From: a virus
Taxonomy: Duplodnaviria > Caudoviricetes
Virus record (IMG/VR): IMGVR_UViG_3300037313_001869
Coordinates: 320,001-384,000 of that record
Direction: 5' to 3' (one strand)
DNA: 64,000 nucleotides
The stretch's first letter is position 1. Each line of letters starts with the position of its first letter. The notes beneath the pieces were generated by a model. The model did not search any database. It saw nothing but the letters and a program-made list of their open reading frames with translations, and had not been told where the DNA came from. A program made the translations under genes and the position numbers. This document shows, in pieces, positions 854 to 58,997 of this stretch.

Positions 854-1060
854 TAACTCCCCGCCCGCAGCCAACTTCGGTTCGGCCGGAAGGGGGGCCG
901 GCATCCGAGCAGGGGGAGGGGCGGCCACCGGAAGCGCCACGACCTTGCGGCTCTTCAGCTTGGAGACCAAGTCCCGGGTGCGCTCCAGCATCTCTTGCGC
1001 TTCGACGACGACGGACTGCATCTCAAGCGCAGGCTTCCTCAGGGTACGGGCACCAGACAT
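854..1060 (-). CDS. hypothetical protein; end placed at in-frame TTA (standard-code end 773)
   Basis: SD GGAGG before ATG 1060; TTA at 856-854 removes a 62-nt convergent overlap. Confidence 0.45.
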
Positions 1061-1137
1061 GAACGAACCTCCGCCGAAAGTAGGTTCATAAAATGATGTG
1101 CGGTTCTGCCACGCTAGGGCAAACCGCCACACCCATT

Positions 1138-1710
1138 TTACCGCCTCGGCCCCTTGGGCGCTCCGTCCAGCGAAAGCACCGACTGAAGCCCCTTGAGGAG
1201 CCCGTTTGCTTCGGCTACGGCCGTGCGAAGCGCCAGCACGTCTTCGTTGTTCTGTCGCGTCGCCTGATCGAAGTCTTCTTCGGTCACGCACTTGTTGACC
1301 AGGCGCTCGATCCGGTCGAGGCTCTCTTCGGTCTCCCGAAGCCGAGTTTCGAGCGTCCGCATCTTGGCCACGGCCTCGTGAAGCTCTTCGAGGTTCAGAG
1401 ACGAGAGAGCCCGGCGAGCCGCCCAGGGCAGGTGCGCCCAGTCGGTGTGCGGGTGGCCGTTCTGAAAGATGGCGTCCATCTCGCCGCGGAGCTTCTTGGC
1501 CGCTTCCTCGACGATGAAGAGGGTGTAGACGATCCCCGACTTCGCTTCGACCGAACCGATCTTCGTCTCGATGAGGTGGAGTTTCTTTTCGGTCTCTTCT
1601 AGCCTCTTTTTGATGTCGCGGAAGAACGCGATGATCGCGGACGCGGCTGTACCGCCCCCAGAAATGACGGCAGGTAGAACATTCTCGACGAGCTGGTCCA
1701 AAAAGCTCAT
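1138..1710 (-). CDS. membrane-anchored coiled-coil protein
   Basis: N-terminal hydrophobic segment followed by heptad-rich helices. Confidence 0.6.
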   Translation of the reverse strand: MSFLDQLVENVLPAVISGGGTAASAIIAFFRDIKKRLEETEKKLHLIETKIGSVEAKSGIVYTLFIVEEAAKKLRGEMDAIFQNGHPHTDWAHLPWAARRALSSLNLEELHEAVAKMRTLETRLRETEESLDRIERLVNKCVTEEDFDQATRQNNEDVLALRTAVAEANGLLKGLQSVLSLDGAPKGPRR

Positions 1711-1761
1711 GACGCTCCGGGGGGTGACACACCACCCGCTGCATAAGAGCTTTCCGAGAAC

Positions 1762-2316
1762 CTACCTCGCGAGGTAACAGGGGAGGCACCTGGCTTCGTA
1801 CGCTTCGCTGCCCCCGACCAGGATCGGCGTGATGGAGCTGGCGATCTCATTCGGCGCGGCGGCAACACGAAAGGTCCGCGTTGCGGGCATCTCACACCGA
1901 ACGCAACGGGCCGTCAGCTTCAGCACCTCGTTGGCAAGCGCCATGAGGTGGGGCATCGGATGAAACGGCTTGCCCGTGTAGGTCATGTCGAGCCCGGCGA
2001 CGATGACCCTTGCGCCTCCCGCCACGAGCTTCTCGACGAAGGGCACGACCTGCTCTCCGAAGAACTGGGCCTCGTCGATTCCGATGACCTCGCTCTCCGG
2101 GTCAGCCCGCAGCTCATCGGGGGTCATCACCTCGGCGGCGAGGCGCTTTCCCGAGTGGGTCACGACCTCCGAGGCCGCGTAGCGGGTGTCGATCCTCGGC
2201 TTGAGGATCTGGACCCGTTGCCCGACCTGCTGGGCTCGGAGCGCCCGGGTGATGAGGTGGGAGGTCTTGCCCGAGAACATCGGGCCGGTGAGCACTTCGA
2301 GGCGGCCGGTCTTCAT
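1762..2316 (-). CDS. tdk: thymidine kinase
   Basis: GPMFSGKT Walker A, IDEAQF Walker B, Zn lasso CxxC...YEARCxxC. Confidence 0.95.
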   Translation of the reverse strand: MKTGRLEVLTGPMFSGKTSHLITRALRAQQVGQRVQILKPRIDTRYAASEVVTHSGKRLAAEVMTPDELRADPESEVIGIDEAQFFGEQVVPFVEKLVAGGARVIVAGLDMTYTGKPFHPMPHLMALANEVLKLTARCVRCEMPATRTFRVAAAPNEIASSITPILVGGSEAYEARCLPCYLAR

Positions 2317-2332
2317 CTACCGGGTCGGGCGC

Positions 2333-2368
2333 AAAAGAAGAAACCCCGGGCGGAGGGTCCGCCCGGGG
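2333..2368 (-). terminator. intrinsic terminator after TROVE gene
   Basis: 11-bp GC hairpin CCCCGGGCGGA/TCCGCCCGGGG followed by TTTCTTCTTTT on minus strand. Confidence 0.75.
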
Positions 2369-2393
2369 TCGTCCGGTCACCTGAGCCGGGGGC

Positions 2394-3962
2394 TCAGATT
2401 TCGGTCTTCTCGATCACGTCCACCCAGTGCGAGCCCTCGGCTCCTTCCTGGAACGCCTTCATCACGGTGAAGACCGAGTCCGAGAAGCCGCCGATGTTGA
2501 GGATGTCCTCCCGGTCGGGCGCCTGGCTCGTCGTGTTCGGCACGAGGTCGACGCAGACGAGCCGGCCGTTCGGGCTCTTCACCTGGTCCCAGAGCGCGAG
2601 CGTGTCGGTCGAGCCCGGATGGGAGAAGCCGTACCGCCGTCCCGTCGTCACCCACGACTCCATGTCCGAGACGTAGAGGCCGAAGTCGATCCGCTCCCTC
2701 TGCTGGAGCAGGTGAGCGAGGGGAGCGGCCGTGTTGGTCGCCCCGCCCCGGAAGGCCGCGAGCTTGGCGGCATTCTTGAGCACCGGCTCCTTCGCGTCGA
2801 AGCTCATCGGGTGTACGTCGTGATCGAAGGCGAGCACACGCGCCCTCGGGTTCTTCCGCAGGACCGAGGCCGTGATGAGCGCGGCCACGTCGATGCACCT
2901 CACGTCCGTCGTCGAGCCCTTCCGCTCGCCGGTGATCCGGTTCGTGGTCATCGAGCCGGAAACGTCGGTGAAGACGAACACGTTGCCTTCGAGCACCGGG
3001 ACGTTGTCGATCGAGACTTCCATGGCCGAGTAGAGGGCCTGGACGATGGGACCCGGCATCTTCCCTTCGGTCGCCTTCCAGGCCATGAAGAGCTGGTAGG
3101 GGAACGTCCGGGACCTGCGAACCTGATCGGGGTCGGCGATCCGGCTCGCGAGGAGCGAGACCATGGCCGGGTCCGAAAGGACGCCGTGCCGCTCGAAGGT
3201 CGCGAGGTTCTTCACGGTCTGCGTGAACGTCGCCCGCTCGGCCACCTGCTTCCAGGTCTTCTCGTCGAGCGTGAGGCCCGTCAGCATCTCGAACGGAGCC
3301 TCGGGCAGCTCGCTGCCAGGCTGCTTCCGGAACGCCTCGTACTTGGCCACGATTGCGGGCAGGTGCTCGGCCACCGAGAGCTTCTCACCCCCGAAGCTGA
3401 ACTCTTCCTTGCCGATGAGGTAGCCGAGCAGCGCCGCCCTTTCCTTGGTCGTGGGCCGCGGGTGGGCGAGCTTGATCACGTCACCGATGGAGGGGTTGTT
3501 GCCCATCGAGCCGAAGAAGATCGACCGGTCATCCTTGCCCTCGAACCAGCTCCGGAGAAGCCTCTTCGGGCCCGAGCCGAGCGAGGTCCGGCCAACCGTG
3601 CCGCTCCGCACGATCTGGGCGAAGTTCCGCACCATCCGGCCGTTGTCGATGACCTTGGGGAAGACCCGCGAGAGCATGGCCGGGTCCCGCTTCGAGAGGA
3701 CCGCGCACAGGAAGGCCGGCATGTCCTTCATGAAGCCCTTCTGCCGGGCGTACACGGCCGTCTTCGCGAGGAAGTCGGTCGGCACGGCCATGGCGAGCTG
3801 ACCCACCGTGGCGAGCTGGTCTTCGGCCGAGGTGTAGAAGGTGTTGTTGAAGCATCCGGTCGCGGCCATCTGCGCGAGGGCGTGCTTCTCGCCCATCTTG
3901 AAGGCGAGGCCGCCCGCGGAGTTGAGGACGTTGGCGACGGGCTTGTTCTTCGGGGTCTTCAT
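2394..3962 (-). CDS. rsr: Ro60/TROVE-vWA RNA-binding protein
   Basis: NxAGGxAF, TGCFNNTFY, FPYQLFMA, vWA MIDAS DVSGSM, GGFSD; start MKTPK with SD GGAG. Confidence 0.9.
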   Translation of the reverse strand: MKTPKNKPVANVLNSAGGLAFKMGEKHALAQMAATGCFNNTFYTSAEDQLATVGQLAMAVPTDFLAKTAVYARQKGFMKDMPAFLCAVLSKRDPAMLSRVFPKVIDNGRMVRNFAQIVRSGTVGRTSLGSGPKRLLRSWFEGKDDRSIFFGSMGNNPSIGDVIKLAHPRPTTKERAALLGYLIGKEEFSFGGEKLSVAEHLPAIVAKYEAFRKQPGSELPEAPFEMLTGLTLDEKTWKQVAERATFTQTVKNLATFERHGVLSDPAMVSLLASRIADPDQVRRSRTFPYQLFMAWKATEGKMPGPIVQALYSAMEVSIDNVPVLEGNVFVFTDVSGSMTTNRITGERKGSTTDVRCIDVAALITASVLRKNPRARVLAFDHDVHPMSFDAKEPVLKNAAKLAAFRGGATNTAAPLAHLLQQRERIDFGLYVSDMESWVTTGRRYGFSHPGSTDTLALWDQVKSPNGRLVCVDLVPNTTSQAPDREDILNIGGFSDSVFTVMKAFQEGAEGSHWVDVIEKTEI

Positions 3963-4088
3963 GTTCGTGGATCTCCATGCCCCTCGGGGGAGAGGCCAAA
4001 ACGTGAGGTCGACGTGAGTACACCGCTGACGGACCCCGGCCGCCCGGTCTGACACCCGAAGCGACTTTTCTCGACCCTGGCGATTTTC

Positions 4089-4115
4089 GGAAAAAGCCCG
4101 GGAGCCCGATCGTCT
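4089..4115 (+). promoter_or_regulatory. class A promoter-like motif GGAAA-N17-CGTCT (one of 24 copies)
   Basis: fixed 17-nt spacer; ATG 7 nt downstream. Confidence 0.75.
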
Positions 4116-4122
4116 CGGGGCC

Positions 4123-4323
4123 ATGACGACCATCACCCAGTCTCAAGCGAAGCTCCTCCTCTCGGCCAAGGACGACGGCGCCCCCCACGAGAGCTACGGC
4201 GATCCCGAGCCGCTCGTCTCGCTCGGCCTCCTTCACGAGGCCCCCTACTACGACCTCACGCCCCGCGGTCGGGCCCTCGTCGCCCGCTTCGCCTGGGTGG
4301 GCGAGAAGATCGTGATTCGCTGA
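4123..4323 (+). CDS. small winged-helix-like hypothetical protein
   Basis: LVSLGLL...YDLTPRGR pattern; follows class A motif. Confidence 0.55.
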   Translation: MTTITQSQAKLLLSAKDDGAPHESYGDPEPLVSLGLLHEAPYYDLTPRGRALVARFAWVGEKIVIR

Positions 4324-4404
4324 TCTGTCAGAAAAAACATTGAACCCCGGTCGTGTCGGCCGGGGTAAAGACCCGCACCCCGATCCGAAAGAGAGCTGAG
4401 TCCC

Positions 4405-5721
4405 ATGCCGAAGATCCCTCTGACCATCGAGACGAACTACCGCCCCAACTGGGGCCTCTGGCACGGCGTCCGCGAGCTGGTCCAGAACGCCGTGGACGCC
4501 GAGACCCAGTACAAGGCGCCGATGGACATCTCGTTCTCGAACAACACCCTTCGCATCGAGAACGACGGCGTGACCCTACCCCAGGAGGCTCTCCTGCTCG
4601 GGCACACGAGCAAGACGGGCGAGGGCCTGCGGGGCAAGTGGGGCGACGGGCTGAAGATCGGCCTGCTCGCGCTCGTCCGGGCCGGCTACAAGGTCAAGAT
4701 CCGCTCGGGCTCGGAGGTCTGGACGCCAGCCATCGAACGGCACGCCCAGTTCAAGGCGGACGTGCTGACGATCAACATCGAGACGGGCCGGCAGGACAAG
4801 AACCGCGTCCGCATCGAGATCGAGGGAATCTCGCTCGAAGAGTGGCAGGAGATGCGCGAAAACTTCTTGTTCCTCACCCTGCGCGAGAACCAGGACCGGG
4901 TGAAGACGAGCGAGGGTACCCTCCTGCTCAGCCCGAAGTACAAGGGCAAGCTCTACGTGAAGGGCATCTTCGTCCAGAACCACACTCAGCTCTCGTTCGG
5001 TTACGATATCGAAGACGCCGATCTCGACATCGACCGGAAGATGATCGAGAGCTGGTCGCTCAGCAGCAAGACCCGCCGGATCTACCTGGAGGCGATGGCG
5101 AGCCGCTCCGATCTCTTCGCCCAGTTCGACAAGCAGCTCGCGAGCGGCTCGTCGGTCGAGGTGCAGAACCTCTCGGACTACAACGTGGACGAGGTGCCCG
5201 AGGAGGCCGTGGCCTTCGTCGCCAACAAGTTCCGCGAGCGCCACGGGGATAACGCCGTGCCCGTCCGCACGCTCGGGGAATCGAAGGACCTCGATCACCT
5301 CGGCGCCAAAGGCGTCGTCGTCAACGAGCAGCAGCTCCTCGTGCTCTCCCAGGTGCTCGACACCGCCGACAAGGTCACGGCCAGGCTGCGGGAAGAGGTC
5401 GTCAAGCGCTTCGGTTGGCACGATCTCTCGACCGAAGAGCAGGACGCCCTCACCGAGGCGGTCGCCACGGTCAATGCCGTCGAGCCGGTTGGCTTCGATA
5501 CGGTCGAGGTGGTCACCTTCCGCTCGAAGGACCTGCTCGGCCAGTACAAGGACGGCAAGACCCTGCTCTCCCGGAAGATCCTGGCCGACTACGGCGAGAC
5601 CCTGGCCACGATCGTCCACGAGGTCGCCCATGCCCGCGGCGGCGACGGCGACAAGAGCCACGTCGCCCAGATCGAGCGCATCTGGAAAGAGATCGCCATG
5701 AACTACCGCGCCAAGCGGTAA
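4405..5721 (+). CDS. GHKL (HATPase) ATPase with C-terminal HEXXH metallopeptidase-like domain
   Basis: ELVQNAVDA N-box, IENDG, GKWGDGLKIG; HEVAH. Confidence 0.8.
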   Translation: MPKIPLTIETNYRPNWGLWHGVRELVQNAVDAETQYKAPMDISFSNNTLRIENDGVTLPQEALLLGHTSKTGEGLRGKWGDGLKIGLLALVRAGYKVKIRSGSEVWTPAIERHAQFKADVLTINIETGRQDKNRVRIEIEGISLEEWQEMRENFLFLTLRENQDRVKTSEGTLLLSPKYKGKLYVKGIFVQNHTQLSFGYDIEDADLDIDRKMIESWSLSSKTRRIYLEAMASRSDLFAQFDKQLASGSSVEVQNLSDYNVDEVPEEAVAFVANKFRERHGDNAVPVRTLGESKDLDHLGAKGVVVNEQQLLVLSQVLDTADKVTARLREEVVKRFGWHDLSTEEQDALTEAVATVNAVEPVGFDTVEVVTFRSKDLLGQYKDGKTLLSRKILADYGETLATIVHEVAHARGGDGDKSHVAQIERIWKEIAMNYRAKR

Positions 5722-5783
5722 CCCCTGGGGGGGCCCGGGTCCTTTGGAAAAAGGCCCGGGCCCCCTCCGTCTCTGGAGCTGCC

Positions 5784-6113
5784 ATGTCACGAAAGTACGA
5801 AGAGCCCACGGTCACCCACCGCGAAATCGTCTGGGTCGATACCACCCACCGGATGCCCGCCGAGAAGCTCGCCCGCCCGGGCGAGAAGGTCTACCGGGTC
5901 TGGACCTGGCTAGGCATTTCGGCCCTTGCCGACGAGCCCGAAAAGCCCGAGCTGCCGGCTCGTCTCGTCCACGGCCACAACGCTTTCCTGGAGGATTACG
6001 TCCACGACTGGACCCTCGATGCCCGCGGCTTCCGCTACTTCTCCCGCATCAGGGAGAAGAACGAGCCGACCTGGATCGTGGTCGAGTACGTGGCCGAAGA
6101 GAGCCAGCCATGA
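5784..6113 (+). CDS. hypothetical protein
   Basis: follows class A motif at 5746-5772; ATGA overlap with next gene. Confidence 0.6.
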   Translation: MSRKYEEPTVTHREIVWVDTTHRMPAEKLARPGEKVYRVWTWLGISALADEPEKPELPARLVHGHNAFLEDYVHDWTLDARGFRYFSRIREKNEPTWIVVEYVAEESQP

Positions 6114-6331
6114 GCGAGCCCATCTTCGGCCGGTGCGAGGCGTGTGGCGGCGAGGTCCCCCTCGTGTCCGGTCAGAAACAGACGTGCCGCGAGTCGAGCT
6201 GCTCGAAGTGCAAGCGCCGTTACGCTTACTCCTGCTGGGTCATCGGCCGGAGGAACGGCAACACCTACTACAAGATCGAGATGTTCCCCGTGCAGGCCGA
6301 CGGCACCCTTGCCGCGCCGAAGGAGGGCTGA
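6110..6331 (+). CDS. zinc-ribbon protein
   Basis: CEAC...CSKC. Confidence 0.55.
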   Translation: MSEPIFGRCEACGGEVPLVSGQKQTCRESSCSKCKRRYAYSCWVIGRRNGNTYYKIEMFPVQADGTLAAPKEG

Positions 6332-6332
6332 G

Positions 6333-7790: not shown

Positions 7791-7821
7791 CTCGGAAGGC
7801 ACGCTACCAAGGAGGTCCGTC

Positions 7822-16581: not shown

Positions 16582-16637
16582 GCAAGAGGGTACCTACACC
16601 AGCATTAAACGCCGAAGGCCCCCGTAGGGGCCTTCGC

Positions 16638-24625: not shown

Positions 24626-25049
24626 CCAGGCTCTTCAGCACGAGCTGCTTGACATTCACGGGTACCGGGTCGACCGACCAGGCGGTCGACGAGACCCATC
24701 GCACGTCGGTGAACTCGTCGCAGAGCACCACGTTTCGGTGGTTGGCGAGAACCGCGAAGGCGAAGTTCATGTGGATTCCCTGGTCTTGCGAAGCGTGCTC
24801 CTCGTATGCAATCAGCCCGGCCGGGGTCCCCGCCACCGCGTCCGGGTCCTGCGGCGCGAGCCGATAGTCCCGGTCGATCTTCCACCCCAGCTCTTCTTGG
24901 ATCTCCCGCACGGCCGTTTCGATCGGCCGCTCCCCCGGCTCCATTCGTCCGCCCGGCGGAACCCAGGCCCGTTGGCGCTTGTGGTTGACGAGCAAGACCT
25001 CGCCACGGTGGACGGCATAGACGGACGAGGTAAAGACGCGGTCGAGCAT
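24612..25049 (-). CDS. Nudix hydrolase
   Basis: PGGRMEPGERPIETAVREIQEELG. Confidence 0.9.
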   Translation of the reverse strand: MLDRVFTSSVYAVHRGEVLLVNHKRQRAWVPPGGRMEPGERPIETAVREIQEELGWKIDRDYRLAPQDPDAVAGTPAGLIAYEEHASQDQGIHMNFAFAVLANHRNVVLCDEFTDVRWVSSTAWSVDPVPVNVKQLVLKSLARFG

Positions 25050-27538
25050 GGGTCGCTTTCGAGGACGCGATCGAACCTCGACCGCGGAAGTGGGGGTACC
25101 GACACGAAGTACACCGACACGTCGTGCGCGTCGTGGACGGTGTTGGTCACGTCCGCCCTGGCGTAGCGCCGCTCCCCTCCCGCTTCGAGTGTGTAGACCC
25201 CGGTTACCCGGTCGTACGCGGTCACCCAATAGCGGTCCTCTCCGATCGGGAAGATGTCGCCGATCTGAAAGAGCTGCATCAGAAGTCCTCGTCGAAGCGA
25301 TCGAACCGGCTCGGGCCCGTGGGCTCGCTCGGCTCGGGCCCCGGAGGAGGCGGAGCCGGGGCCGGCAGGTTCTCGTAGTCCTCGGGCGGCTCGTCGATGA
25401 TGAGATCGAAGCTCCCATTGCCATGGTTTTCTTCGAGCTGTGCGTTCTTGGTCGCCTTGGTCTGCAAGTCGAGCAAGACGAGCGACCGGCCGACGACCGA
25501 GCGGACCTCGAACTTCCGGTTGCCCGCCGTGAGGGTCTGTCCGACCGTGAAGGGAGAGTCAGGCATTGAAGGGTATCCTTTCGTAGCGCTTGGGGTAGCG
25601 TTTCGTCTTCTTGTCTTCGGCGACCCAGGGGACCACGCGGCGGCGCAGAAAGGCCCGGATCTCCTCGGCCGAAGGCTCCGCAAGAGCGATGCGCCACGAG
25701 AGGGGCGGAGCCGAGACGGGCGGCGGCATCTTCGCGAAGAGGTTCGTACCGAAGACCCCGAAGTACATCCTCACCTGGCCGTCCTCGGGGTGGATGTACG
25801 CTTCGTAGCCGTCGGGCAGCACGGTGACCGACCGGCCACGCTGCCAGGCGAGGGCGCGAGGGCCGGGGTCGTCCCTGCCCCTGACCCGACGCTCGATCAC
25901 GTCCGCTTCGGTCGAGCGTTGCTCGTGCATCCGTTGGTGGTCCCGGCGCAGGGCTACGTCCCGGCTGACCGCCCCGTCCATCGGGTTCGGCTTGTCTTGC
26001 GGCAAGCCCTTGGCCCACGCTTCGCGGTCGAGCCAGGGGATCTCGATGAGAGCTGACCGCGAACCGGAGGTCGCGTTCAGGAACGCGAAGTTCGGGATGC
26101 GAGGGCTCAGCAGGTAGAAGACCTCTGGTTCTTCGACCACTCCGAAGTTGGCCATGTCGTCGAAGATGATCGCGTGCGTCGTCAGGCCCCGGATGCGGTC
26201 GGGGGAAGGGGGACGGATGCTGTCGACCGATACCGTGATGAACCGGTAGTCGGGGTCGCGCATCGCCTCGCGGGTCATGGCCATGACCCGCTGCCGGGTG
26301 TTCTCAAACTCGGCCATGACCCGCTGTTCGGTCGCCTCGAAGTCGATGTGCCCGAGGATGCTACGGTACTGGACCATCGCCCCCATGCTGACCCTGAGCG
26401 AGCTTCCGATGTGCGTGTCGCCGACGAACTGCATCCTGCCCGTGGGCCCGTACTGCCTGTCGGTCGAGCGACCATAAAGCCGCTGAAACGTCTCCAGCAT
26501 TGCGTGTGATCTTGGGGGCACGGCGTTTCTCCATTTCGCGTCGGATCTTCTGGATGCCAGGGTCGAGCTGCATGGCGAACTCGATGTATTCGAGGCCGAG
26601 CTGAGCCTTCAGGTTCTTGCCCCCGCGCATGGCCCGGAGGATGTTGGGGGCCCCCTGGCGGGGGAAGGTGACTTCGAGTTCCTCGAAGTCACCTTGCTTC
26701 TTCTCGAACCAGGCGCGGATCACCTGATCACGCCGAAACTCTTTCTTGGCCCGGTCCCTCTCGCGGCGCTTCGCGGCCTCTCTGACCCGAGCAAGGCGGG
26801 TCTCTTCGGCCCAGGCGCCGCCGTCGAGCACGGCCTGAAAGCGATCGTAGAGGCGACGGGTCATGCCGAGAGCGTCAGCTCGTAGGGGTCGAAGCCGTCG
26901 TCATCGGCCAGGCGAGCGAAGCGATCAGGACGGGACTTCTCCGCTTCCGCGAGCCGGGCCCGGAGGTCGGCTTTCATCTCCTCGATCCGAGCCGGCACCC
27001 CCGCCTCTTCGGGCGGCAGGTTGCGCGGGATGGGGATCTGTTCGAGCCGCCGAAGGGCCTCGGCAAGCTCGGTCTCTTGCTCCCGCTCCCATGCCGGGGT
27101 GATCCGAGGCTCCTTGTAGCTCTGAAAGACTCCGTTGTACTCGGTCCGAAAGGCCATGAGTAGCTCGGGGCTGAGGGGTTCGGGCTCGAAGCTTGGGACC
27201 CGGATGCGCCGGACCGCTTCGGGGTTAGCCCAGAAGATCCCCGGCTCTTCGTATGCCGCAAAGCCCACCATGGGGGCCCTGGTGAAAGGCGTTTGGATCA
27301 GGTCGGCGTAGTCGAGCCCTATGCGGAACGGTCCGCGAAGGGCGTGGGAAAGCCGCGCCTCGAAGAGGTCCGGGCTGTAGATGTAGCCCGAAAAGGGCTT
27401 GCCCTCGTGGTTGACGATCATCTGGGGTTTCGCTGCTCGGTAGCGAGCCCGGACGATCCGATACCGTTTCGTCTGCGAGGGCTGCACGAGCAAGGCGAGC
27501 GAGGCCGGGTCGGTGAGGATCGTGGGGTCAGGGGGCAT
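25031..27538 (-). other. run of five hypothetical ORFs, four with R(F/Y)xR motifs (25031-25279, 25279-25566, 25559-26500, 26475-26864, 26861-27538)
   Basis: SRFDRV, SRFDRF, KRYERI, DRFARL; two ends placed at in-frame TTA. Confidence 0.55.
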
Positions 27539-27953: not shown

Positions 27954-27969
27954 CGGGGTACTCTACACC

Positions 27970-28290
27970 GTGCCTTGCTCGATCCCGCTCTCGGTCGCTC
28001 GTGACCTCTACGCTCGGTTCTGCGACAACCCCGATCACCCGATGGGGGTACCGTCGCCCTTGCCGTCCCCGTACAACGGCACCCTTCGCGTGCTCTCGTT
28101 CGAGTACCACGAGGCAGAAGACCGCCGAGGGTACGTTCTCGGCGAGGTCTCTTTCATGACCCGTGAGGGTACCGGCCAGTGGCGCCGAGCCTCGATGGAC
28201 CTCGGAGACTTCGCCGAGGCTGTGGTGGGCGGCTTTCTCAAGCCCCGCGCCCATCCCCGGCCCCGGTACGAACGCGAGGACGTGATCTAA
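27970..28290 (+). CDS. hypothetical protein ending PRYEREDVI (start uncertain)
   Basis: TAA at 28288-28290. Confidence 0.5.
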   Translation: MPCSIPLSVARDLYARFCDNPDHPMGVPSPLPSPYNGTLRVLSFEYHEAEDRRGYVLGEVSFMTREGTGQWRRASMDLGDFAEAVVGGFLKPRAHPRPRYEREDVI

Positions 28291-28572
28291 GCCCGCGTCC
28301 CGGCCCCGCTTGATCAGGATGACGTAGTCGCTGTCGACGAAGCGGTGAAAGCCCCGGGCGTTGCTGCCGTCGGTCCGCTGCCGTGTCCCGTAGACCGCGT
28401 AGCCGCTGGTCTCGATGGAGTTATCGACGAGAACCCGCTCGACCACGAGTGGGTAGGGCTGGGGTCCGGGGATCACGATCTCGTCGTCCTTCTTGATCGC
28501 GTGCGGCAGGATCATGCACGACTTCCACACGACGGCGGGGAACTTCTCTTCTTTCGGGGAGGCTTTTGCCAT
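28288..28572 (-). CDS. hypothetical protein; end placed at in-frame TTA (standard-code end 27946)
   Basis: otherwise it overlaps the whole opposite-strand gene. Confidence 0.5.
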
Positions 28573-28629
28573 GGCCTTAAACGACACCGCCCGGCGGAGG
28601 GCCGGGCGGGGGGTTCGTCCTGTCTTTTT

Positions 28630-33708: not shown

Positions 33709-34288
33709 GGTGCCTCGGAGACGATCGACGGCCTCGGGTTTTTCCGAAGCCGTCGATCTTTTTTCGGTCACGCCTCGAAGTGCAGACCACACCTGCGGCA
33801 GCACAGCTCACGCCGGCTCGTGCAGCCGTTGTCCTCGTGCGGGCCCTCGTCGCCGCACTCGGGGCAGGCGATCTCACGGCGGGCTTCTTTGGCGAGGGCT
33901 TTCAGAGCAGCCGCCTTGCCCGAGCGTTGCGTGGTGAGGATCTGGAAGGCTTTGCGATCGGTGGGGGTCATGGTCCCGAAGAGACGCCCGAGGCGCCGAT
34001 CTTTTTCCGGCATTCTTCGCACCAGACCGAAGGGTCGGGCAGCGCCTCTTTCGCGAGCGCGAGCGAGCCGTGACAGACCATCGTGGCGTGGTCTTCGCAC
34101 AGGGTCACCCACGGCAGCTCGGGGTCGGTTTCGATGCCGGCCTGCATGGAATGGTAAAGGCCCGCACGGCTGCCCGTGATCCGGCTCTTGCGGATCACGA
34201 CGCAGCCGGCGAGCCCGTCGAAGCCGTACTCTTTGATCTGGCGAGGCATGGCCGGGGGAGACGATCTCAGCCCCGGCTTTTTTCCCGG

Positions 34289-35015: not shown

Positions 35016-35059
35016 GAAAGCAGAAGAGGGGCCTTCCCGCTCACCGGAAAGGCCCCTCT
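35016..35059 (-). terminator. intrinsic terminator
   Basis: AGAGGGGCCTTTCC/GGGAAGGCCCCTCT stem followed by TCTGCTTT. Confidence 0.6.
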
Positions 35060-35071
35060 CCCGGGGTCAGC

Positions 35072-36151
35072 TAACCACTTGCCGTCGCGCACGCCGGGGG
35101 CCGGAACCGGCTTCGGCGAGAGGTCCCGGATCTGCTCCTTCGGGATCTCGATGCTCTTGGCGATGTCGGCCGCGAGGTGCATCCCCTTCTGGAAGCCCAG
35201 CTCCTTCAGGCCCTTCAGGTTGGCGAGAAGGGGCGTGCCTTCGAGCGCCTTCAGGTCCTCACGGTAGTAGTCGAACCAGGGGTAGCCGCGCTGGCGGTAG
35301 TAGTCGGCCGAGGCCGGGGTCGAGGGCGCCGGCTCGCCCGTGATGATCTCCCAGGCCAGGCTGTTGGCGAGGCTGACGAAGCACCTCTCCTTGGCCGAGA
35401 GGTCCCACACGTCGAGCCCGTGCGGGTCGTCGAACACCTGCTGCTTCATCTTGCCGCCGGCCGCGAGGCCCATGTCGGCCGCCGGAGCCGCCGCCGCGAA
35501 GGACATGCACTCCAGGGCTCCGCCCATGCTCTCCAGGCTCCTGATGCCCCGGCCGCGGTAGCGCCGGTCCTCGGGCACGATCGGGAACTTCTTCTCGAAG
35601 ACCTCGCGCTTCATCGGGTAGGCTTCGATCTGGATGCCGCCGAAGGTCTCCTTGCCCGTGAGCTGCGCCTCGACCGTGAAGCCCATCCCGAGCGGAGCGG
35701 CGACGAACTGGCGGATCGTGCCCTTCTCGACCGTGAAGCCGTCGAGCCACGGCTGCTCGGGGATCGTGACGTAGTCCTTCGCCCGCAGCTCGTTCGTCCA
35801 CGCCTCGCCCGTCACGGCCGAGCGCATCCCGGCGCCGATCTTGAGCGCGATCGGGTAGTTGGTCTGCCGCTCCTCGTCGAAGGTGCCGCTGAAGGAGAGC
35901 CAGAGCGCCTCGGCCTGGTACATCGGCAGGAAGATGCCGCCCCGCTCGACCCACGAGGCCGGCACGCGCTCGCGGTAGGAGTCCACCTTGCGCAGAGGGA
36001 AGCTCCCGAGACCCGGGGGCAAGGGGTAGTTCTTGCCGTCGTCGGGGATGCGGATCGTCCGCTCGAACTCGATCTCGGCCTTGGCCGAGGGGTGGACGTT
36101 CGGGAACGCGAACGCGAGGCGGGTGTTGTGCTGAGTCAGGTCCATCTTCAT
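35072..36151 (-). CDS. conserved uncharacterised protein (RTIRIPDDG..YPLPPGLG family); end placed at in-frame TTA
   Basis: motifs LPMYQAEALWLSF, QPWLDGF, MGLAAGG, GYPWFDYY. Confidence 0.7.
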
Positions 36152-38185: not shown

Positions 38186-38350
38186 TCAGCCCAGGTCTTG
38201 TGCGTAGACCTTCGCGGCGCACACGATCAGAAACGCCCCCGAGGGCGAGAAGCCCTCGTGAACAAGCATGTCGAGGGCCCCCTCTTCGCCGATAACCTCG
38301 ATGAGCTGGGCCACACGACGGATGGTCTCGGCGAAGGGAGGGGCGGGCAT
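38186..38350 (-). CDS. 54-aa hypothetical protein (below ORF-track cutoff)
   Basis: SD AGGAG; [13 protein letters not shown]... Confidence 0.5.
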
Positions 38351-38379: not shown

Positions 38380-39063
38380 TAAGACGTTCGTGAGGAACTC
38401 GTCGTCCGACGGCTCGACCTTCGCATCGCTCGGAGCCGGGATGGTCCGCTCCTCGGGATCGGGCTCGTTCACCCGGTCGTAGCGGTTGCCGCCCGGCAGG
38501 CTCCCGGTCTTGCCGCAGAGGCGCTCGACGAACTCCACCACCTGCCTTACCGTCGCCGCCTCTCCCCGCAGGATCAGGGTCTCCTTGTCCCCCGAGACCT
38601 TCAGGTAGTAGCGGACCGGCATCGGGATCTCGGCCGAGGCCGACGGAACGCCCTGGCCGTAGCTGCCGGTCTGCATGGACCCGGTGACCGTGTAGGGGGC
38701 CTTGTCCTCCGGCCGGCCCTGGGCCTCGCGGATCTCCAGCTTGGCCCCCGTCGCCCCGCCCGTCTCGAAGACCGAGGTGTAAGAATACAGGTGATCAGCC
38801 ATGCCGTTCAGGACGGCCGCGGGGGTGTGCTCGACGATGTCCTTGGCCTCTTTCAGGCCGAGGCCCGTCACCTGCCGGACGGCCTTGATGCAGTTGATCC
38901 GGTTGATGCCCGGGTCGACGAGAACGAGCACGCTCGGCACCGGCCCGGCCGCCCCCGGTCCCGCGAAGCGCTCGACGAGCCCTGTCGCCTCCGAGAGCCG
39001 GGCGATCTCGGTCTTCAGGATGGCCTTCTGGCCGTTGATCTCCATCTTCAGGTAGGCGCGCAT
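38380..39063 (-). CDS. protein containing a ribosomal L7/L12 C-terminal domain; end placed at in-frame TTA
   Basis: [24 protein letters not shown]. Confidence 0.75.
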
Positions 39064-39064
39064 G

Positions 39065-39373
39065 TAAATACTCCTCCGGCAGAAGCGCCGTCGTCACCGA
39101 GCGATCGGCCTCGGTGATCACGTACACCTTCTGCTTGCCGAACTGGTACACCGACAGGAGCCGGTCGCCCGAGGTGACGCCGTCGTCGTTCGCCTTCTTG
39201 TCCTCGGCGCACACGTTGCCCCAGTCGGCCTTCGCGTGACGGGCGAGAAAGCCCGACAGAACCTCTCCGGTCACGCCCGCGGCGGCGACGCCGGATGTGT
39301 AGACGACCTCGCCCAAGCGAAAGAGGTTCTGCTCGGGCATCACAATGACAAGGGGGGCTTTTTTCATGTTCAT
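39065..39373 (-). CDS. conserved phage/plasmid protein (F.LG...T.G...RH..DWG...TEADRS.TT.LLPEEY); end placed at in-frame TTA
   Basis: family-typical C-terminus LLPEEY followed directly by TTA. Confidence 0.75.
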
Positions 39374-43774: not shown

Positions 43775-43790
43775 GGGTCACGCTTTCTTT

Positions 43791-47309: not shown

Positions 47310-47353
47310 GTCTTCTAAGACACCGATCCCCCGGTGTCAGAGAGAGCACGGCC

Positions 47354-48272: not shown

Positions 48273-48447
48273 GCCCCACGCAGGGGCCGGCCCCGCGAGG
48301 TCTTTTCCTTGGGGGCGCCCTGCTTCTCTAGCGCCGCCCGGAGCTTCGCCTCGTCGCCGAAGGTCCGGTAGCTGTAGCCCTGCTCCAGGTGCCGGACCTT
48401 CCAGGCGCCGGGCCCGTCCTCGACCGCCTCCATGGGCCCGACCTGGA

Positions 48448-49011
48448 TCATGCGCTCAGGGTTTCGGTCGGGCTCGCGAGCGACGGGGACGAAGGCGTGG
48501 GCGATGATGACGACGGGTCGCTCGCGGGTGAGAGGACGGGGGCGCTCTTGGGCGACCGGGGCCGGGGGGACCTCTTCGCCTTTTCCTTCGGGGCGTTCGG
48601 CTCCTTCGAGATCGAGAACGCCTTGGTCTTCTCGTCCTTCACCAGCATCCGGTCCTTCCTCAGGTGGTAGAGGACGTTGTAGACCTTCGTTTTGTCCTCC
48701 CCCGCCGTCCCCAGAAGCTTCAGCAGGGCCCGGGTCTTCATCGGGCCGCGGTCCTGGATCAGGTCGTAGACCTGCTTCCGAAGGCCGGTGTGCGGCCCTC
48801 CGACCGGGCCGCGGGACGGGGCGGGGGGCACGCCGGGGTTCGCCGCCCTCCGCGAGAAAGGGCCCGGGGGCGCCTCCTGGCCCGACGCGGTCTCGATGTC
48901 CGTGGCGACGGAGGAGAGCAGCCGGAGAGCCACCTCCGGCGAGAGCGGCGCGAGCGTCCGAAGGACCTCCGCCTTGATCTGGGCCTGCTCGGCCAACGCT
49001 TGGATAGCCAT
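48448..49011 (-). CDS. winged-helix DNA-binding protein
   Basis: VYDLIQDRGPMKTRALL...VYNVLYHLRK; basic tail. Confidence 0.55.
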   Translation of the reverse strand: MAIQALAEQAQIKAEVLRTLAPLSPEVALRLLSSVATDIETASGQEAPPGPFSRRAANPGVPPAPSRGPVGGPHTGLRKQVYDLIQDRGPMKTRALLKLLGTAGEDKTKVYNVLYHLRKDRMLVKDEKTKAFSISKEPNAPKEKAKRSPRPRSPKSAPVLSPASDPSSSSPTPSSPSLASPTETLSA

Positions 49012-52770: not shown

Positions 52771-53759
52771 CGCAAGACGAGCTTCCTCACAAGAGGCTTA
52801 TTCTTGCGATGGCCATGGACCCAAAAAAATTTGGGAATGGACGCGACGTTTTCCCCGGATCAGTGGATCGTGCGCGGCAGCTCGTCCCTCAGATCGAGCG
52901 CCCGGGCGTCCTCGATCATGAGCCCGATCAGATCGGGGCTCTCGACCGTGGGATCGGCGGGTACCGCCCTCGCCGCCACGATCCTCTCGCCGAGCCCGAT
53001 CCCCCGGGCCAGGGCCGGCAGCTTCGAGACGGGCAGAGGCCGCCGGCTCACGTAGGGCCGGGTCTGATCTTCGGCCACGCAAAGGCACGCCCAGACCAGG
53101 CCCTCGACCGGCGTGGGCGTCACCGTCAGAAACCCAAACTCCCCACGGCTCCCGCGCAGAGCGAAGAGCCACCTCGTGGTCGTGCTGAACGTCGGCAGGT
53201 TCATGTCAAAGAGTACACCGGTGATCTTCGGTGTAGAGAACCGGGCGATGCACCCCTCCGAGCGCCTCGTGGCCTTTCTCTATGACCTCATGCGGGACAA
53301 CCTCCCGGTCGGCACCGTCGAGCAGCTCGTGCGGAACAACGAGCCCATCGGGCTCGGCGAGATGGTCACCTACTCGAACAAGTACCTCGCGACCTACGCC
53401 CGGGAGCTGGCCATCCGGCTCACCTCGGTCATCGTCCAGACTCCGCACGAAGAAGCCGCGACCCTGCCCATCACCCGCATCCTCTACGGCCTCGCCTCCC
53501 ACCGGCTCGTCCCCTTGCAAAATCTTGGGCCCATCGTCGATCAGGTCGTCAAATGCCCCAAGACCCCGACGAGCATTGGAGGGGTCCGGGTCCCGGCCCC
53601 TTCGCCCGCGGCCCGGCTTCTCTGCGTCCTCGCCGCCAACAACATTCCCTTCGACAAACTCCCGCCCGGCACCTCGATCGCCGACCCGCCCGATCTCGAC
53701 GTGGGGCTCTGGCAAGGCTGCCGCGTCTGGGCGAGACGCATCGTAGAGGAGACCTGACC

Positions 53760-54212
53760 ATGAAAGTCCTGGAAAAAGGCACCCCCACCGCTCCCACCTG
53801 GACCGCCGAGGTCCTCTGCACCGGCGTCGGTACCGGAGGGGGCGGCTGCGGCGCCAAGCTCCTCATCGAGAAGGACGACGTGGTGGCCGTCCCCCACCCC
53901 GACGGCCACGCCGCCCAGATGTTCGCCTTCTGCTGCCCCGAGTGCGGCGTCGAGACGGGCATCGCTTCGGTACCCAGCTTCGTCCGGAGCCAAGCCCGGG
54001 TGATGCCCGCCCAGGCCCCGGTCGACTCCGGCGAAACGGCCCGGCTCATCGCCCGGATGACCGAGGCCCGCATCGCCGTCGAGGCGATCCGCCCCCCTTC
54101 GCACCGGGGCTCTTGCCCCATCGAAGACGACACCTCGTACGCCCCGTGCAACTGCGGCGCAAGCGACGTAGAGCGGGCGATCGAAAAAGCCAAAACCCTC
54201 CTGAGGGTCTGA
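53760..54212 (+). CDS. zinc-ribbon protein, paralog 1
   Basis: CTG...GGGCGAKLL...FCCPECGVET. Confidence 0.65.
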   Translation: MKVLEKGTPTAPTWTAEVLCTGVGTGGGGCGAKLLIEKDDVVAVPHPDGHAAQMFAFCCPECGVETGIASVPSFVRSQARVMPAQAPVDSGETARLIARMTEARIAVEAIRPPSHRGSCPIEDDTSYAPCNCGASDVERAIEKAKTLLRV

Positions 54213-54870
54213 CCCCATGCCCAAAACCCGGTTCGATCACATCTGCGGGGACGACGCCCCACCCCCCGTAGAAAAGGGCGTCTACAACACGGCCCCCGTC
54301 TGGCCCAAGGAAGACCGGTACGCCGCTCTGACCCGGATTCGCGAGGCCCGCCTGGCCCAGTGCCGGAAGAGGGGCTGCGTGGGCTGCCCTACGTGCCGGG
54401 CTATCGAGCGCGTCTTCGAGGCCGACCGGCAAGACGAGAGAAAGAAGGCCCGCGAGGCCGAAGACCAGGCGTGCATGGAAGAGCTACGGATTCTCTTCCA
54501 GGACCGGTGGCCCGACCCCATCGAGCTGATGGCGCAGGTTCTCGCCTTCATGAAAGACGCCCGTGTGGCCGGAGTCAACTTGCCCAATCTGATCCGGCAG
54601 TTGAAAGCTACCAAAGGGGTGTAAGGGCCAGGACATGAAAGCCAAGGTCGTCGAGTTCAACGTCATGCCCTTCGATCCCTACGAGCTGTGCGGGCTGCCC
54701 CCAGGGATCTCTCACATCCTCCTTCGCTTCTACGCCGACCCGGAGGCTACAGCCAGGATCGTGCGCTTCTTCAAGGAGAACGGCTTCATCATGGACGCCG
54801 ACGCCTCCCCTCCCCCTGGACCCGACCCTATCCTCACCGAGGGTGTCCCTGCCCTCCCGGAGAAAACGCC

Positions 54871-55158
54871 ATGAGAGTCCTGAAGAAAGGCACCGGCCAG
54901 CGTGGCTGGAGCGTCGAGGCCGAATGCACCGGAGCCAACAACGGCGGCGGCGGGTGCAGCGCGAAGCTCCTCGTCGAGCAAGACGACCTCTACAAGACCT
55001 ACTCCTCCGACCGCCCCGGCTACCAGATGCACATCACCTTCCGCTGTCCCGAGTGCGGCGTCGAGACGGACGTGCCCGACAACAAAGTCCCGGGCCACGT
55101 CGTCTCGAAGCTCGTCGACAAGAAGGACAGGCACCCTACCGACCGGGACCCGCTCTGA
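54871..55158 (+). CDS. zinc-ribbon protein, paralog 2
   Basis: CTG...GGGCSAKLL...FRCPECGVET. Confidence 0.65.
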   Translation: MRVLKKGTGQRGWSVEAECTGANNGGGGCSAKLLVEQDDLYKTYSSDRPGYQMHITFRCPECGVETDVPDNKVPGHVVSKLVDKKDRHPTDRDPL

Positions 55159-58009
55159 TGAGCGACGCCATTCTTGCCCAGGCTCGTATCTCGTTCCGGA
55201 GTCTTGGCGTCCGCGACGCGAACCTTCGGATTGAACCTTCCATCGAGGAGCGGACCGCCCGCGGACCCGACGAGGGCCCGTTCGCTTCGCTCCTCGAAGC
55301 CACCGTTCCCTCAGGACGGACCTACCACCTGGTGAGGGGCGACGAAGACCTCGTCGTGGGCTACCTCGCGATCCGTAACGGCAGGGTGGTCGAGTGCGGC
55401 ATTTCGTGGATCGCCACCGACATGGCCCTGGGCCTTTCGGTTCTTCTTCCCGCCCCCATGGCCACGGTCCGGATCATTGATGCCCCGTGGTTTCACCTCC
55501 GGGCCCTTTGGGTCACCGACCCCTCGGGTCTCGAACGCTGCTGGGTCGGAACGCCCCCCTTCCCCTGGGACGGACCGAAGGGGGAGCAAACCCCGGAGAC
55601 TGTCTGCCACGCCCTCGCGAACAGGACCCCGGAAGGAGGCATGGTCACGGTCTTTCTCGACTGAGCCTCAGGTGACGAACGCGCCCCAGCCGGCGAGGTT
55701 GACCGCGAGCACGGCCGTTTTGTGGGGAACGGCCAAGAGCGTGCGCAGCAAGTCATCGGTCGGCTGGCCCGGCTGCATCGGTAGATCGAGCCTCCGACCC
55801 GCCACCCGGACGATCCCCCCCTCGTCCCAGTAGGCCGCGAGGCCGGAGAGATCGTAGCTCTCCGTCGAGCACGCGCAGTCCGTCTGCACGTCGAGGTGGA
55901 AGGCTTTCAGCAAATCCTTGCTCACGCCAGAGAGCCGGAAGACGGGGTCGTCAGCCACGCTTCTCTGCCTTCGCCCTGCGCCTCGCCATGTACCCGGGCT
56001 TGTAGTCGGGCAGCCGAACCACCGGACCCTCCGAGAACGAGGCGTACCAGAAGATCCCGTTGTGGCCCGGGTCCTCGTCCTGGTTGTGGCACCGGAGCGT
56101 CAGCACTTGGCTCATCGGACGCTTGTAGTGGATCTCGTCGCGGACCGAGACCACGACGTACTTCCACATCCCCTCGGTCCCTCGTCGCGGCGTCGCAAGA
56201 TCGGGCGCATGGTCGATGATGTAGAGCCGGTGCCCGAGCGGCCTCTTGAACGACGGCTGCTTCTTGCCCTCTCGCTTCCGGGTGAACGAGTAGCCGTAGC
56301 CCGCGTAGATCCCGGGGGTGCAATACTTCGGCCGAAGGTCGTCCTCTCGTTCGATCCCCTCCTCGATCAGCACGGCCAGGGTCGTGCGGTAGCGGGAAGG
56401 GTCGATCTCAGGTTTGCCCGTCAGGTCGATCAGCATCCCTTCCCTACACCAGCCACGACTCGAACGGGAGAAGCTCGTAGCCCACCGGCACGAGCTTCTT
56501 TACCCCGCCCTGCCCCCAGACCCAGGCGTGGGTCCCCAGCGCTACCCAGGCGTCCGCTTCTTCGAGGCTCGTCGCCGAACCAAGGCTGAGATTCGGCAAG
56601 ACCACGCCGACAACCTCCGTCACGCTCCAGCCCCTCACCCGATCTTGTCCCATCGCGTGCTCCTCTTCTCTTCTTCCTCGAACTTCGCGTACGCCAGGCG
56701 GGCACGGTAGAGCGACTCCCGCGCCTCTTCCTCGTCGTGGTGGCACTCGGTCTCGCCGAACCTCCCGTCGGTGACGAGCCACACGTCGTCCTCGACCCTT
56801 CTCATCCTCGGCCCAAGCTCCAGGTCGGGCTCCGTCCTCATGTGCCAGTCCACCCCCACCTTCACGAGCCCCCGGTCATGCAAGGTCAGCGCTGCCGACG
56901 AGACCTCCCCCCGAGAGCCCTCGTAGGGGTACTCGTTCGGCATCAGCCCCTCCTCGCCTCGTTCGTGAACCGCGAGCAGAAGCCGGACTTCAAGATCGGT
57001 GAGCGGGCGCAGGGCCATGGCCCGGGTACCTACACCGGGCTTGGCGGTGAGCCAGTAGTTGGGCGTCGGGACGACACGCAGGTCACGGGGGCTCATGGTT
57101 TGACCCCGACCTCTGCCAAGGCCCGAAGGGCCCGGGCGTCCTCTTCCCTCCGGATGAGGTCCATCAGGAGCTTCGGCCTCGGGTCGAGGCCAAGCGCCCG
57201 ATCCAGAAACCGATCCTTCCAGGCGAACCGGACGTAGGGCGTAGGACCCGGGAGACTCTCGACCTGAAGCTCTCCGGCCAGGATGGCGATAACCCGCGCG
57301 TCTTCGTAGTCAGCGATCGTCATGGGGTTGCTCCGCAGTCAGGACAAACCGAACGAGGCGTCGGCCGGACCCAGTCGCAGATCGGGCACGCCCTCGCGTC
57401 CATGTACCGGTCGGCGCAGCCGTGGCACTGCCTCAGCCCCCGGCCCCGATCCCCAGGGACGCCGCACGACCCGCCGAGGAGCCTCCCCCCGCACACGTCA
57501 CACCGACTCCCGCGGTAGGCCCGGTACCGAGCCCGCGACCACGCCGCAGCCCACCGGAGCAAGGCCCCTACCACGACCCCGAGCCCGAACACGGCAAGGG
57601 CTGCGGGGCTGGTCACGGCTTCTTCTTCCGGTCTTCGAGCCGCTCGGGCACAGCCCTCTTGAACATCGCCGAAGCCCGCGCCTGCGTCATGCCCGGGACC
57701 CGCTTGACCATCTGGCCCACGAAGTAGTCCTTGGCCCGGTGGTAGAGCACGACCCGGTTCACGACCGCCTCGACCCGCGTGAGCCCCACCCTCGTGCAAG
57801 GCTCACACGACAGCTCCCACGGCTGCGGGTGCTGCCGATAGTCCTCGCAATAGAGGGCCCGAGAACGGCCGCAGCTCTGGCATTTACCCCTGGCCTTCCA
57901 GACCTTGAAGTGGAGGTCGCCGACGCTCTGGTGGATCGTGAACGTCTCGGGCTCTTGCGGCAGGGCCGGTGTTTTCTTGGGCTTCGGGGGCATGGGACCT
58001 ATTTACACC

Positions 58010-58530
58010 CGTGGACCGAAAAAATGGCCGGGGGAAAATTTTGGAGCCGGGCTCCTAGTCCCGATCGGTCTCGACTTCGGCGCGGACCTCGGCCTTCGCC
58101 CCCGTTCGCTCCGCTTGCGTCTCGATCTGCTTTCGCTTCGACCACGCCCGCTTCTGGTTCCGGGACCCGAGCACCGTGTCCTTCCAGAACTTGCAGCGCT
58201 GTCCGTACCGGCTCTTGTTCGACCTGCTCATGATTTACCGCCTTTCCCCAGAAAAAGAACCGGGGGACTTTTTAGGAGGCCCGGGCCTCCGAGGGGCCTT
58301 TTCGGTTTTACCTGAAAAATGCGGCCGGGCCAGTTTTTCCATGGGAGATACCGGGTTTTGCCCGGTCACGATCCATTTCCGCTCGCCTACTGAATACGCC
58401 CATTTACGCTACCCGTGCAAAACGAAAACGATAATGAAGCGGTTTTTCGTTGCACTTCCGGAGGGTCTACCCAGTGACCCCCGGAGATACGTTTCAGTCT
58501 TACGAGCGGGTTCGATGGGCACTACCCTCC
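58010..58530. other. AT-enriched, apparently non-coding region; candidate replication origin
   Basis: A/T tracts; visible switch from C-rich to G-rich plus strand. Confidence 0.45.
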
Positions 58531-58718
58531 CGTCCATGCAAGAAAAAAGCGATGCGATCGAGAGACCGAACCGCAAGATGCGCCGGGCCGTGGCGAAGAC
58601 CTACCGATCGAACCCAGGGGCCGAGGTGGTAGGTCTTGAGCTACCGCGCGAGGACATGACCCGCGACACGAAGAGGCGCGAGGGAGGGAAGACGGGCCGG
58701 TTCTTCCCCTCGGGCACG

Positions 58719-58997
58719 TAAGTCAACGAAGAAATCGCGAAGGGCCTTCTTGGCCTCTGCGAGGGTGGAGAAGCTCTTCTCGTCGAGGGCGTCTGCCCCC
58801 GGGCGGGAGAAGGCCCGGCCCACGAGGGCCACCTTGTAGCCGGTGACCTCGACCCTCTGCTGTCGGGTCGAGCCCACGTAGGAGACGGAGACCTCCCGCT
58901 CGATGTAGCCCACGAGGGCCTCGCCGTGGTGGACGAGGGCCGAGGGGTTGTTGCCGGGGGTGACCTTGCCGAGCTTGCCGAAGGAGAGGAGGGACAT
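58719..58997 (-). CDS. hypothetical protein; end placed at in-frame TTA (standard-code end 58641)
   Basis: class A motif 59005-59031; TTA coincides with opposite-strand TAA. Confidence 0.55.

Follow-up and report, generated by a model that had tools for sequence, protein, structure and literature searches.

The window analyzed here, 64,000 nucleotides (nt) in length, comprises positions 320001-384000 of the 435,218-bp IMG/VR virus record IMGVR_UViG_3300037313_001869, the whole genome of which is labelled G000. G000 is a soil-type giant phage; its genome carries direct terminal repeats, is rated 100% complete, has a GC content of 65%, and contains 44 tRNA genes and one transfer-messenger RNA (tmRNA) gene. 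A first-pass annotation, made from the window sequence alone, had proposed that UUA ends translation in this DNA, through either sense-to-stop reassignment or a hungry codon, on the basis of nine genes with an in-frame TTA at the point where the protein should end (Table 1). This proposal is supported by the positions at which homologous proteins end, by the tmRNA tag, by improved gene models when TTA is treated as a stop codon, and by the absence of tRNA-Leu(UAA) from the phage tRNA set.

Table 1. Genes ending in TTA, and two RNA features, in the window (window coordinates; aa, amino acids)
Feature	Position	Strand	Remark
55-aa candidate gene ending in TTA (854-856)	854..1021	-	weakest of the nine
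DUF4419 copy 1, 363 aa, ending in TTA (8911-8913)	7822..8913	+	Pfam DUF4419
tRNA, anticodon CUA (would read UAG), type II, discriminator A73, encoded CCA	11932..12021	-	Rfam tRNA 58 bits, ARAGORN
82-aa gene ending in TTA (25031-25033)	25031..25279	-	gene model; same-frame NUDIX gene downstream
129-aa orphan gene ending in TTA (26475-26477)	26475..26864	-	gene model; read-through +38 aa over next gene
99-aa gene ending in TTA (28288-28290)	28288..28587	-	TTA = TAA stop of convergent + gene
Perfect 19-bp RNA hairpin, then UGCUUUC	35021..35063	-	begins ~10 nt past TTA 35072
359-aa gene ending in TTA (35072-35074)	35072..36151	-	read-through +261 aa
227-aa protein with ribosomal L7/L12 C-terminal domain (residues 47-89), ending in TTA (38380-38382)	38380..39063	-	
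102-aa 'plasmid related protein' family member ending in TTA (39065-39067)	39065..39373	-	next ATG 1 nt on
92-aa gene ending in TTA (58719-58721)	58719..58997	-	coding score 0.48 before, -0.51 after

Genes of the window that end in TTA

All nine TTAs reported by the first-pass annotation were found in frame at the positions it gave, with a coding score that was positive before and negative after each of them. Under a gene model with four stop codons every one of the nine was the end of its gene, and read-through would add 25-395 codons. Two other in-frame TTAs (17465 and 36161) lie outside genes, upstream of likely ATG starts. The annotation had also stated that TTA never falls inside a recognisable domain, and no Pfam domain extended across a TTA in the 19 open reading frames (ORFs) scanned.

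The protein of the gene that stops at 35072 ends in VRDGKW followed by TTA, and its homologue in the related genome G001 (63% identity) ends in VRDGKW followed by TGA at the same place. The C-terminal tryptophan is invariant in five aligned homologues, all of which stop 0-3 residues on, and a second relative has TTA at offset 0. This TTA had been placed just before a terminator, and folding recovered the 19-bp hairpin downstream of it with a free energy of -45.6 kcal/mol (z=-3.8). A simple terminator scan made no call at this site, the strong hairpin notwithstanding, because the T-run is weak.

The 'plasmid related protein' family, whose members have ~95 residues, gave 986 homologues of the window protein, which among the matches listed are mostly ~85-113 aa long. 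All 12 aligned homologues end in LLP[ED][ED]Y at the invariant Y102, the residue before TTA, so that LLPEEY is indeed the family C-terminus, and the 90-aa tail that read-through would add has no counterpart in these 12 proteins. Furthermore, the homologue in G001 has TTA directly after LLPAEY.

The TTA at 8911 separates two tandem DUF4419 duplicates, the second of which (381 aa) begins at ATG 8956 in the same frame as the first. Copy 1 matched the full profile (1-303 of 303) over residues 70-360 and copy 2 over residues 69-366, and both have the same architecture, a ~69-aa N-terminal region followed by the full domain. Reading this TTA as the end of copy 1 agrees with the complete domain ending three residues before it, and one orthologue of copy 1 stops at +4. 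The standard code fuses both copies into a single 759-aa ORF (7822-10101).

For the gene with the L7/L12 C-terminal domain, a domain that recruits translational GTPases, the coding score was 0.70 before TTA and -0.48 after it. The next gene follows 29 nt on and the second TTA (38293-38295) lies in a non-coding-like tail, in line with the earlier description of this site; the next gene, at 38186-38350, was recovered only with TTA as a stop. The public protein P0122 (38230-39063, 278 aa) is the read-through form of the same gene. Among outside matches, the 227-aa protein is closest to atypical proteins with an L7/L12 domain from Myxococcota (Nannocystis, Archangium).

Among the remaining sites, the TTA at 28288-28290 is shared with a convergent partner (27958-28290, + strand), which ends in PRYEREDVI followed by TAA. 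Opposite-strand genes (+) have a C-terminal motif in common, YEREDVI at 27958-28290 of the window and FDREDVL at 33752-34102 of G000. The sole database match to the gene at 26475 is its own 167-aa read-through call, P0244 (26364-26864). At the 25031 site the standard-code ORF has 468 aa, with TTA at codon 329 and the NUDIX domain after it, at residues 337-443. The gene ending at 58719 has a possible convergent partner (58515-58721, + strand) that ends in TAA, which is weak and has a low coding score. Finally, the candidate at 854 likewise has a low coding score, only 21 in the four-stop gene model, and no Pfam match.

Position of TTA and gene models across the genome

Genes were called greedily with a codon log-odds model trained on long ORFs of high GC content at third codon positions. 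The standard-code ORFs of G000 hold 50 in-frame TTAs, 24 of which (48%) fall in the last decile of the ORF (binomial p=9e-12), and their median relative position is 0.88. The last-decile share was 10-17% for CTA, ATA and GTA; thus, in the contig-wide comparison with these three codons that the first-pass annotation had suggested, TTA alone piles up at ORF ends. In a control run of the related genome G002 through the same pipeline, 14% of TTAs were in the last decile and 8% were then followed by non-coding sequence, TTA was ordinary in the relative G007, and bacterial loci (1.25 Mb, 59-66% GC, nine groups) gave last-decile shares of 0-23%. Where at least 15 codons were left before the standard stop, non-coding-like sequence followed 58% of the TTAs of G000 compared to 5% for all codons. 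A stop-agnostic sliding-window test proved to be confounded for rare codons in a phiCbK control and was not relied on; phiCbK, with a TTA count of one, is itself unsuitable as a control.

TTA was the sole codon that stood out by position in the standard-code gene model, and once it was read as a stop, no other anomalous codon was left in the codon-by-position test of G000; a mild enrichment of AGA, CCA and ATA at ORF ends in the standard model also returned to normal. Each apparently internal TTA with a good downstream coding signal had an in-frame ATG within a few codons, i.e., two genes in one frame, and TTA is absent from gene interiors in G000. Treating TTA as a stop raised the number of genes from 589 to 632 (43 recovered), coverage from 87.1% to 90.4% and the summed coding score by 6.4%, and no comparable gain was obtained with CTA, ATA or AGA as the extra stop. 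Under the four-stop model 71 of the 632 genes (about one in nine) end in TTA. Back-up stops within three codons after TTA occur at 7%, as for TAA. The TTA share is at its genome maximum at 200-250 kb, the virion gene region, where TTA ends 28% of genes (15 TTA versus 2 TAA and 2 TAG), as if it had replaced TAA in the structural module.

At 17 of 53 convergent junctions in G000 the two genes share one trinucleotide, which serves one of them as TTA and its partner as TAA; examples are 28288-28290 in the window and positions 86521, 101218, 271318 and 402930 of G000. Such junctions leave zero intergenic space for a terminator, and a single-base error cannot repair both genes of a pair.

Homologous proteins end at or near the TTA position

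The ends of orthologues were compared in the genomes G001, G002, G006, G007 and G008 and in 80 IMG/VR loci, with use of orthologues that reach the C-terminus. For 28 TTA-ended genes of G000 (235 orthologue pairs), the stop of the orthologue coincided with the TTA in 63% of pairs, lay within two residues of it in 79% and within five in 89%; the baseline from TGA-ended genes was 53, 82 and 92%, respectively. Judged by these alignments, orthologue stops at TTA-ended genes are indistinguishable from the TGA-ended baseline. The first-pass annotation had asked whether TTA maps to the stop codons of homologues, and most of the 235 pairs place TGA, TAA or TAG at or near it. In one family of the structural region, TGA, TAA or TAG comes straight after LDLR[VI] in 79 of 80 IMG/VR homologues, G000 has TTA there, and the 80th homologue, on contig L186, has TTA at the same place. 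Alignments of G000 with G001 and G002 contained none that crossed any of the nine TTA sites with coding signal on both sides, and no homology was seen to extend across any TTA. We regard homologue alignment as the decisive line of sequence evidence for TTA as the predicted end of these proteins.

Distribution of the trait among related phages

The trait is stronger in G006 (IMGVR_UViG_3300031576_000001, 323 kb, 58.6% GC) than in G000, with TTA at 1.2 per 1000 codons, versus 15.6 for CTA and 16.2 for GTA. The last decile holds 71% of the TTAs of this genome (p=7e-51), TTA closes 98 of its 330 genes (30%), and the orthologue stop lies no more than two residues away in 77% of 77 pairs. At the GC content of G006, GC bias cannot explain the trait there. 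It is probably shared by G001 (3 of 3 sites), by G008 (IMGVR_UViG_3300036715_003906; 15 sites, all end-like) and by L186, and it was seen in assemblies from different metagenomes. TTA is read as leucine in G002 (IMGVR_UViG_3300022719_000283, 619 kb, 58% GC), in G007 (50% GC) and in the uncultured huge phage LR745208.1.

The major head protein of G000 shares 83% identity with its counterpart in LR745208.1, 47% with the one in Tunturiibacter phage Tunturi_5 and 38% with the one in Bacillus phage G. Because so close a relative as LR745208.1 reads TTA as leucine, the change of code must be labile in evolution. The nearest cultured relative of G000 is Tunturi_5, a jumbo phage that infects soil Acidobacteriota; it is unlikely to serve as a cultured model with TTA as a stop, since it encodes tRNA-Leu(UAA). 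Leads to the host conflict, with Acidobacteriota indicated by the host of Tunturi_5 and Myxococcota by the matches of the L7/L12-domain protein. A scan of genome contigs with the 359-aa window protein found chromosomal homologues in many phyla and was uninformative on the host.

tmRNA tags, tRNAs and release factors

tmRNA tags end in ALAA, which is followed by a stop codon. In the tmRNA of G000 (Rfam, 78.8 bits) the tag frame reads ANDNFAASPALAA and then TTA, and in that of G006 it reads ANDNVEAAPLALAA and then TTA, beyond which more than 20 codons pass before any standard stop. TGA or TAG occupies the same tag position in the tmRNAs of G008, G009 and G002. Tags ending in UUA, together with the lack of back-up stops after TTA, suggest active release, and on this sequence evidence the tags argue for release over mere stalling. 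The ANDNV...ALAA tags resemble those of myxobacteria, a further lead that gave no verdict on the host.

Our searches did not detect tRNA-Leu(UAA) among the 44 tRNAs of G000 or the 39 of G006, and it was found to be encoded by relatives in which TTA is a sense codon (G002, G007 and Tunturi_5). TTG is an ordinary codon in G000, which has a phage tRNA-Leu(CAA). The first-pass annotation had recommended a genome search for tRNA-Leu(UAA) and for release factors, and neither was detected in G000. Recognisable phage-encoded release machinery was rejected as the agent of termination there, none of the five domains sought being detected. The RF-1 domain was not found in G006, G008 or G009 either, and it occurred only in the TTA-sense genome G002, where it is present with its GGQ motif (93 bits) in a 225-aa open frame (48386-48712, locus L273).

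The tRNA(CUA) of the window is well formed and is located far from the 43-tRNA array of G000. A tRNA(CUA) of 75 nt and of a different type is present in G006, and searches of G002, G007 and G008 gave none; a link of this tRNA to the change in TTA is unproven. Recoding of TAG to sense by tRNA(CUA) found no support, as TAG still behaves as a stop in G000 and G006 and dropping it as a stop lowers the gene-model score of G006. Origin of tRNA(CUA) from tRNA-Leu(UAA) was also discarded, as it has no clear similarity to any leucine, serine or tyrosine tRNA. With respect to stop-to-sense recoding of the kind found in phages, no true homology extended across in-frame TAG, TGA or TAA sites, and the coding signal after such sites came from new starts or antisense shadow frames.

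Weighing the explanations

Taken together, the sequence comparisons make it likely that UUA is a fourth termination codon in a phage lineage that includes G000 and G006 and probably G001, G008 and L186. Several observations weigh against this conclusion. The close relative LR745208.1 has TTA at the conserved leucine of an STLSMG motif. G008 looks TTA-terminating yet has an odd 76-nt tRNA(UAA) (248035-248110; type I, anticodon UAA, two mismatches in the anticodon stem), which may be either a degenerating tRNA-Leu(UAA) or something novel. The RF-1, PCRF, Pth, SmpB and GTP_EFTU domains were not detected in the complete G000 genome. Finally, the gene models come from a purpose-made, unbenchmarked caller, and a few of the TTA-ended calls are short and weak.

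UUA might instead be merely unassigned, a hungry codon without a tRNA at which ribosomes stall and the peptide is slowly released by rescue, drop-off or near-cognate reading by the ordinary release factors RF1 and RF2, none of which would recognise UUA specifically. That G000 has neither a tRNA-Leu(UAA) nor a release-factor gene and carries its own tmRNA would fit such a state, and lability among close relatives would be easier to explain if only the loss of a tRNA were needed. We nevertheless consider it unlikely, because in both phages that end genes in TTA the tag frame of the phage's own tmRNA closes with UUA as well, and a tag ending in a stalling codon means that the rescue system would itself need rescue. 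Furthermore, 11-30% of genes, virion genes included, end in this codon and are not protected by back-up stops. Unassigned codons reportedly did not release peptide in Micrococcus luteus extracts. In a regulatory variant, UUA is a conditional stop that acts when host tRNA-Leu(UAA) is scarce and is read as leucine when this tRNA is present, as with bldA in Streptomyces, and yields extended or fused products as a form of regulation. This variant has precedents in UUA-dependent regulation and in the bypassing proposed for a Streptomyces phage terminase gene (PMC10732093), and at about nine sites the reading frame that TTA closes goes on into another gene. Such downstream genes make up only ~9 of 53 co-directional cases, below the chance expectation of one third, and the tails past TTA lack both coding signal and counterparts in homologues. 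Conditional reading would also send 17 tails antisense across a convergent gene and deprive the tmRNA tag of its terminal ALAA, all of which makes it highly improbable.

The explanation that requires no change in the code, namely that TTA is leucine and the pattern arose from stop-loss mutations, long overlaps and sequencing or assembly errors, draws on the fact that TAA or TGA becomes TTA by a one-base change and that the public gene calls P0122 and P0244 read through. It would have to account for ~70 sites in G000 and ~98 in G006, in independent metagenome assemblies, and a base change at the 17 shared junctions only shifts the problem to the other strand. There is no TTA at conserved internal positions, G002, G007 and LR745208.1 use it as ordinary leucine, and loss of tRNA-Leu(UAA) correlates with the trait, such that we can give this explanation hardly any credence and regard it as close to refuted. 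A +1 frameshift onto a stop (T-TAA or T-TAG) was rejected, as TTA is followed by C or G in 78% of cases and by A in only 4%, and so was a general effect of rare codons or Shine-Dalgarno motifs at gene ends, as no TTA effect was seen in bacterial loci of equal GC content or in G002.

Proposed mechanism and implications

If UUA is a termination codon in these phages, ribosomes that reach it would find no decoding tRNA, and the peptide would be actively released. By analogy with organelles, the likeliest releasing agent would be a host class-I release factor of the RF2 type with widened reading of the second base. As a consequence, either the host shares the code or the phage removes host tRNA-Leu(UAA) and uses another factor. 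We would stop just short of calling probable a tentative extension of this model, in which an uncultured soil bacterial host terminates at UUA itself, or else the phage imposes an extra stop on a standard-code host. In the former case the host would lack tRNA-Leu(UAA) and possess an RF2-type factor whose reading is widened, and its code would have escaped notice because genomes of this kind contain too few TTAs for code-inference tools. If true, a free-living organism would for the first time be shown to use a sense-to-stop genetic code. In the latter case an unrecognised factor would create the extra stop in a standard-code host; if true, such a stop would prevent competitors from reading the phage genes and would render UUA codons of the host lethal.

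Reports of sense-to-stop reassignment come only from organelles, and phages in which UUA closes 11-30% of the genes would show that bacterial translation can run with four stop codons. On this reading, standard-code annotation errs in ~10-30% of genes, the errors being spurious C-terminal extensions, wrongly fused genes and ~40 genes missed altogether, and public protein databases already hold extended forms, such as P0122 and P0244. The contrast between close relatives with and without the code would provide a natural experiment on how the meaning of a codon changes. What recognises UUA when the virus brings no detected release factor is a question that can now be tested.

Comparison with known systems

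The first-pass annotation knew of no phage precedent, and our full-text search of the searchable literature likewise found no report of UUA as a stop in a phage or bacterium. Its attribution of UUA termination to NCBI code 23 held for Thraustochytrium mitochondria but was too narrow, as more organelles are involved than this code alone covers (PMC12574857). UUA is a stop in Labyrinthulea/Thraustochytrium mitochondria (NCBI table 23), and UUA and UCA are stops in peDinoflagellate plastids; a route through an RF2 with widened reading has been proposed for both groups (PMC12574857). The organelles of these two groups have fewer than 100 genes, and their nuclear-encoded RF2 carries a substitution in the SPF motif. 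The cases listed in the paper are all from organelles, and it describes the one in plastids as the first change from sense to stop to be found beyond mitochondria (PMC12574857).

G000 resembles these organelles in that the same leucine codon has apparently become a stop, occurs only at gene 3' ends defined by homologues and has no detected phage tRNA(UAA) gene, and in that apparent fused genes dissolve once UUA is read as a stop. It differs in being a 435-kb virus that uses a bacterial ribosome and has no detected release-factor gene, and, in contrast to peDinoflagellate plastids, UCA is unaffected. Mitochondria of Marsupiomonadales and Pseudoscourfieldia, in which UUA and UUG are stops read by an altered mtRF1a (PMC12574857), likewise combine a change of leucine codons from sense to stop with tRNA loss. 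Both UUR codons are affected there, whereas TTG is ordinary in G000. In human mitochondria AGA and AGG are also codons without a tRNA that end reading frames, with mtRF1 as the paralogue concerned (cited in PMC12574857). Only two genes are involved in that case and a dedicated release-factor paralogue serves them, whereas no such factor was detected in G000.

Stop-codon recoding in phages was reportedly described by Borges et al. 2022. Phages with TAG or TGA recoded to sense by suppressor tRNAs (Al-Shayeb et al. 2020, PMC7162821) are similar to G000 in being large, in using a non-standard code and in carrying many tRNAs, among which G000 has a tRNA(CUA). The direction of change is the opposite, however, and TAG, TGA and TAA all behave as stops in G000. 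The bldA system of Streptomyces and the proposed bypassing in a phage terminase gene (PMC10732093) are similar in that decoding of UUA is limited by its tRNA, in a high-GC setting, and is exploited by a phage. In Streptomyces UUA is still leucine, lies inside genes and marks a few regulated ones, whereas in the present phages it never lies within a gene and closes 11-30% of them.

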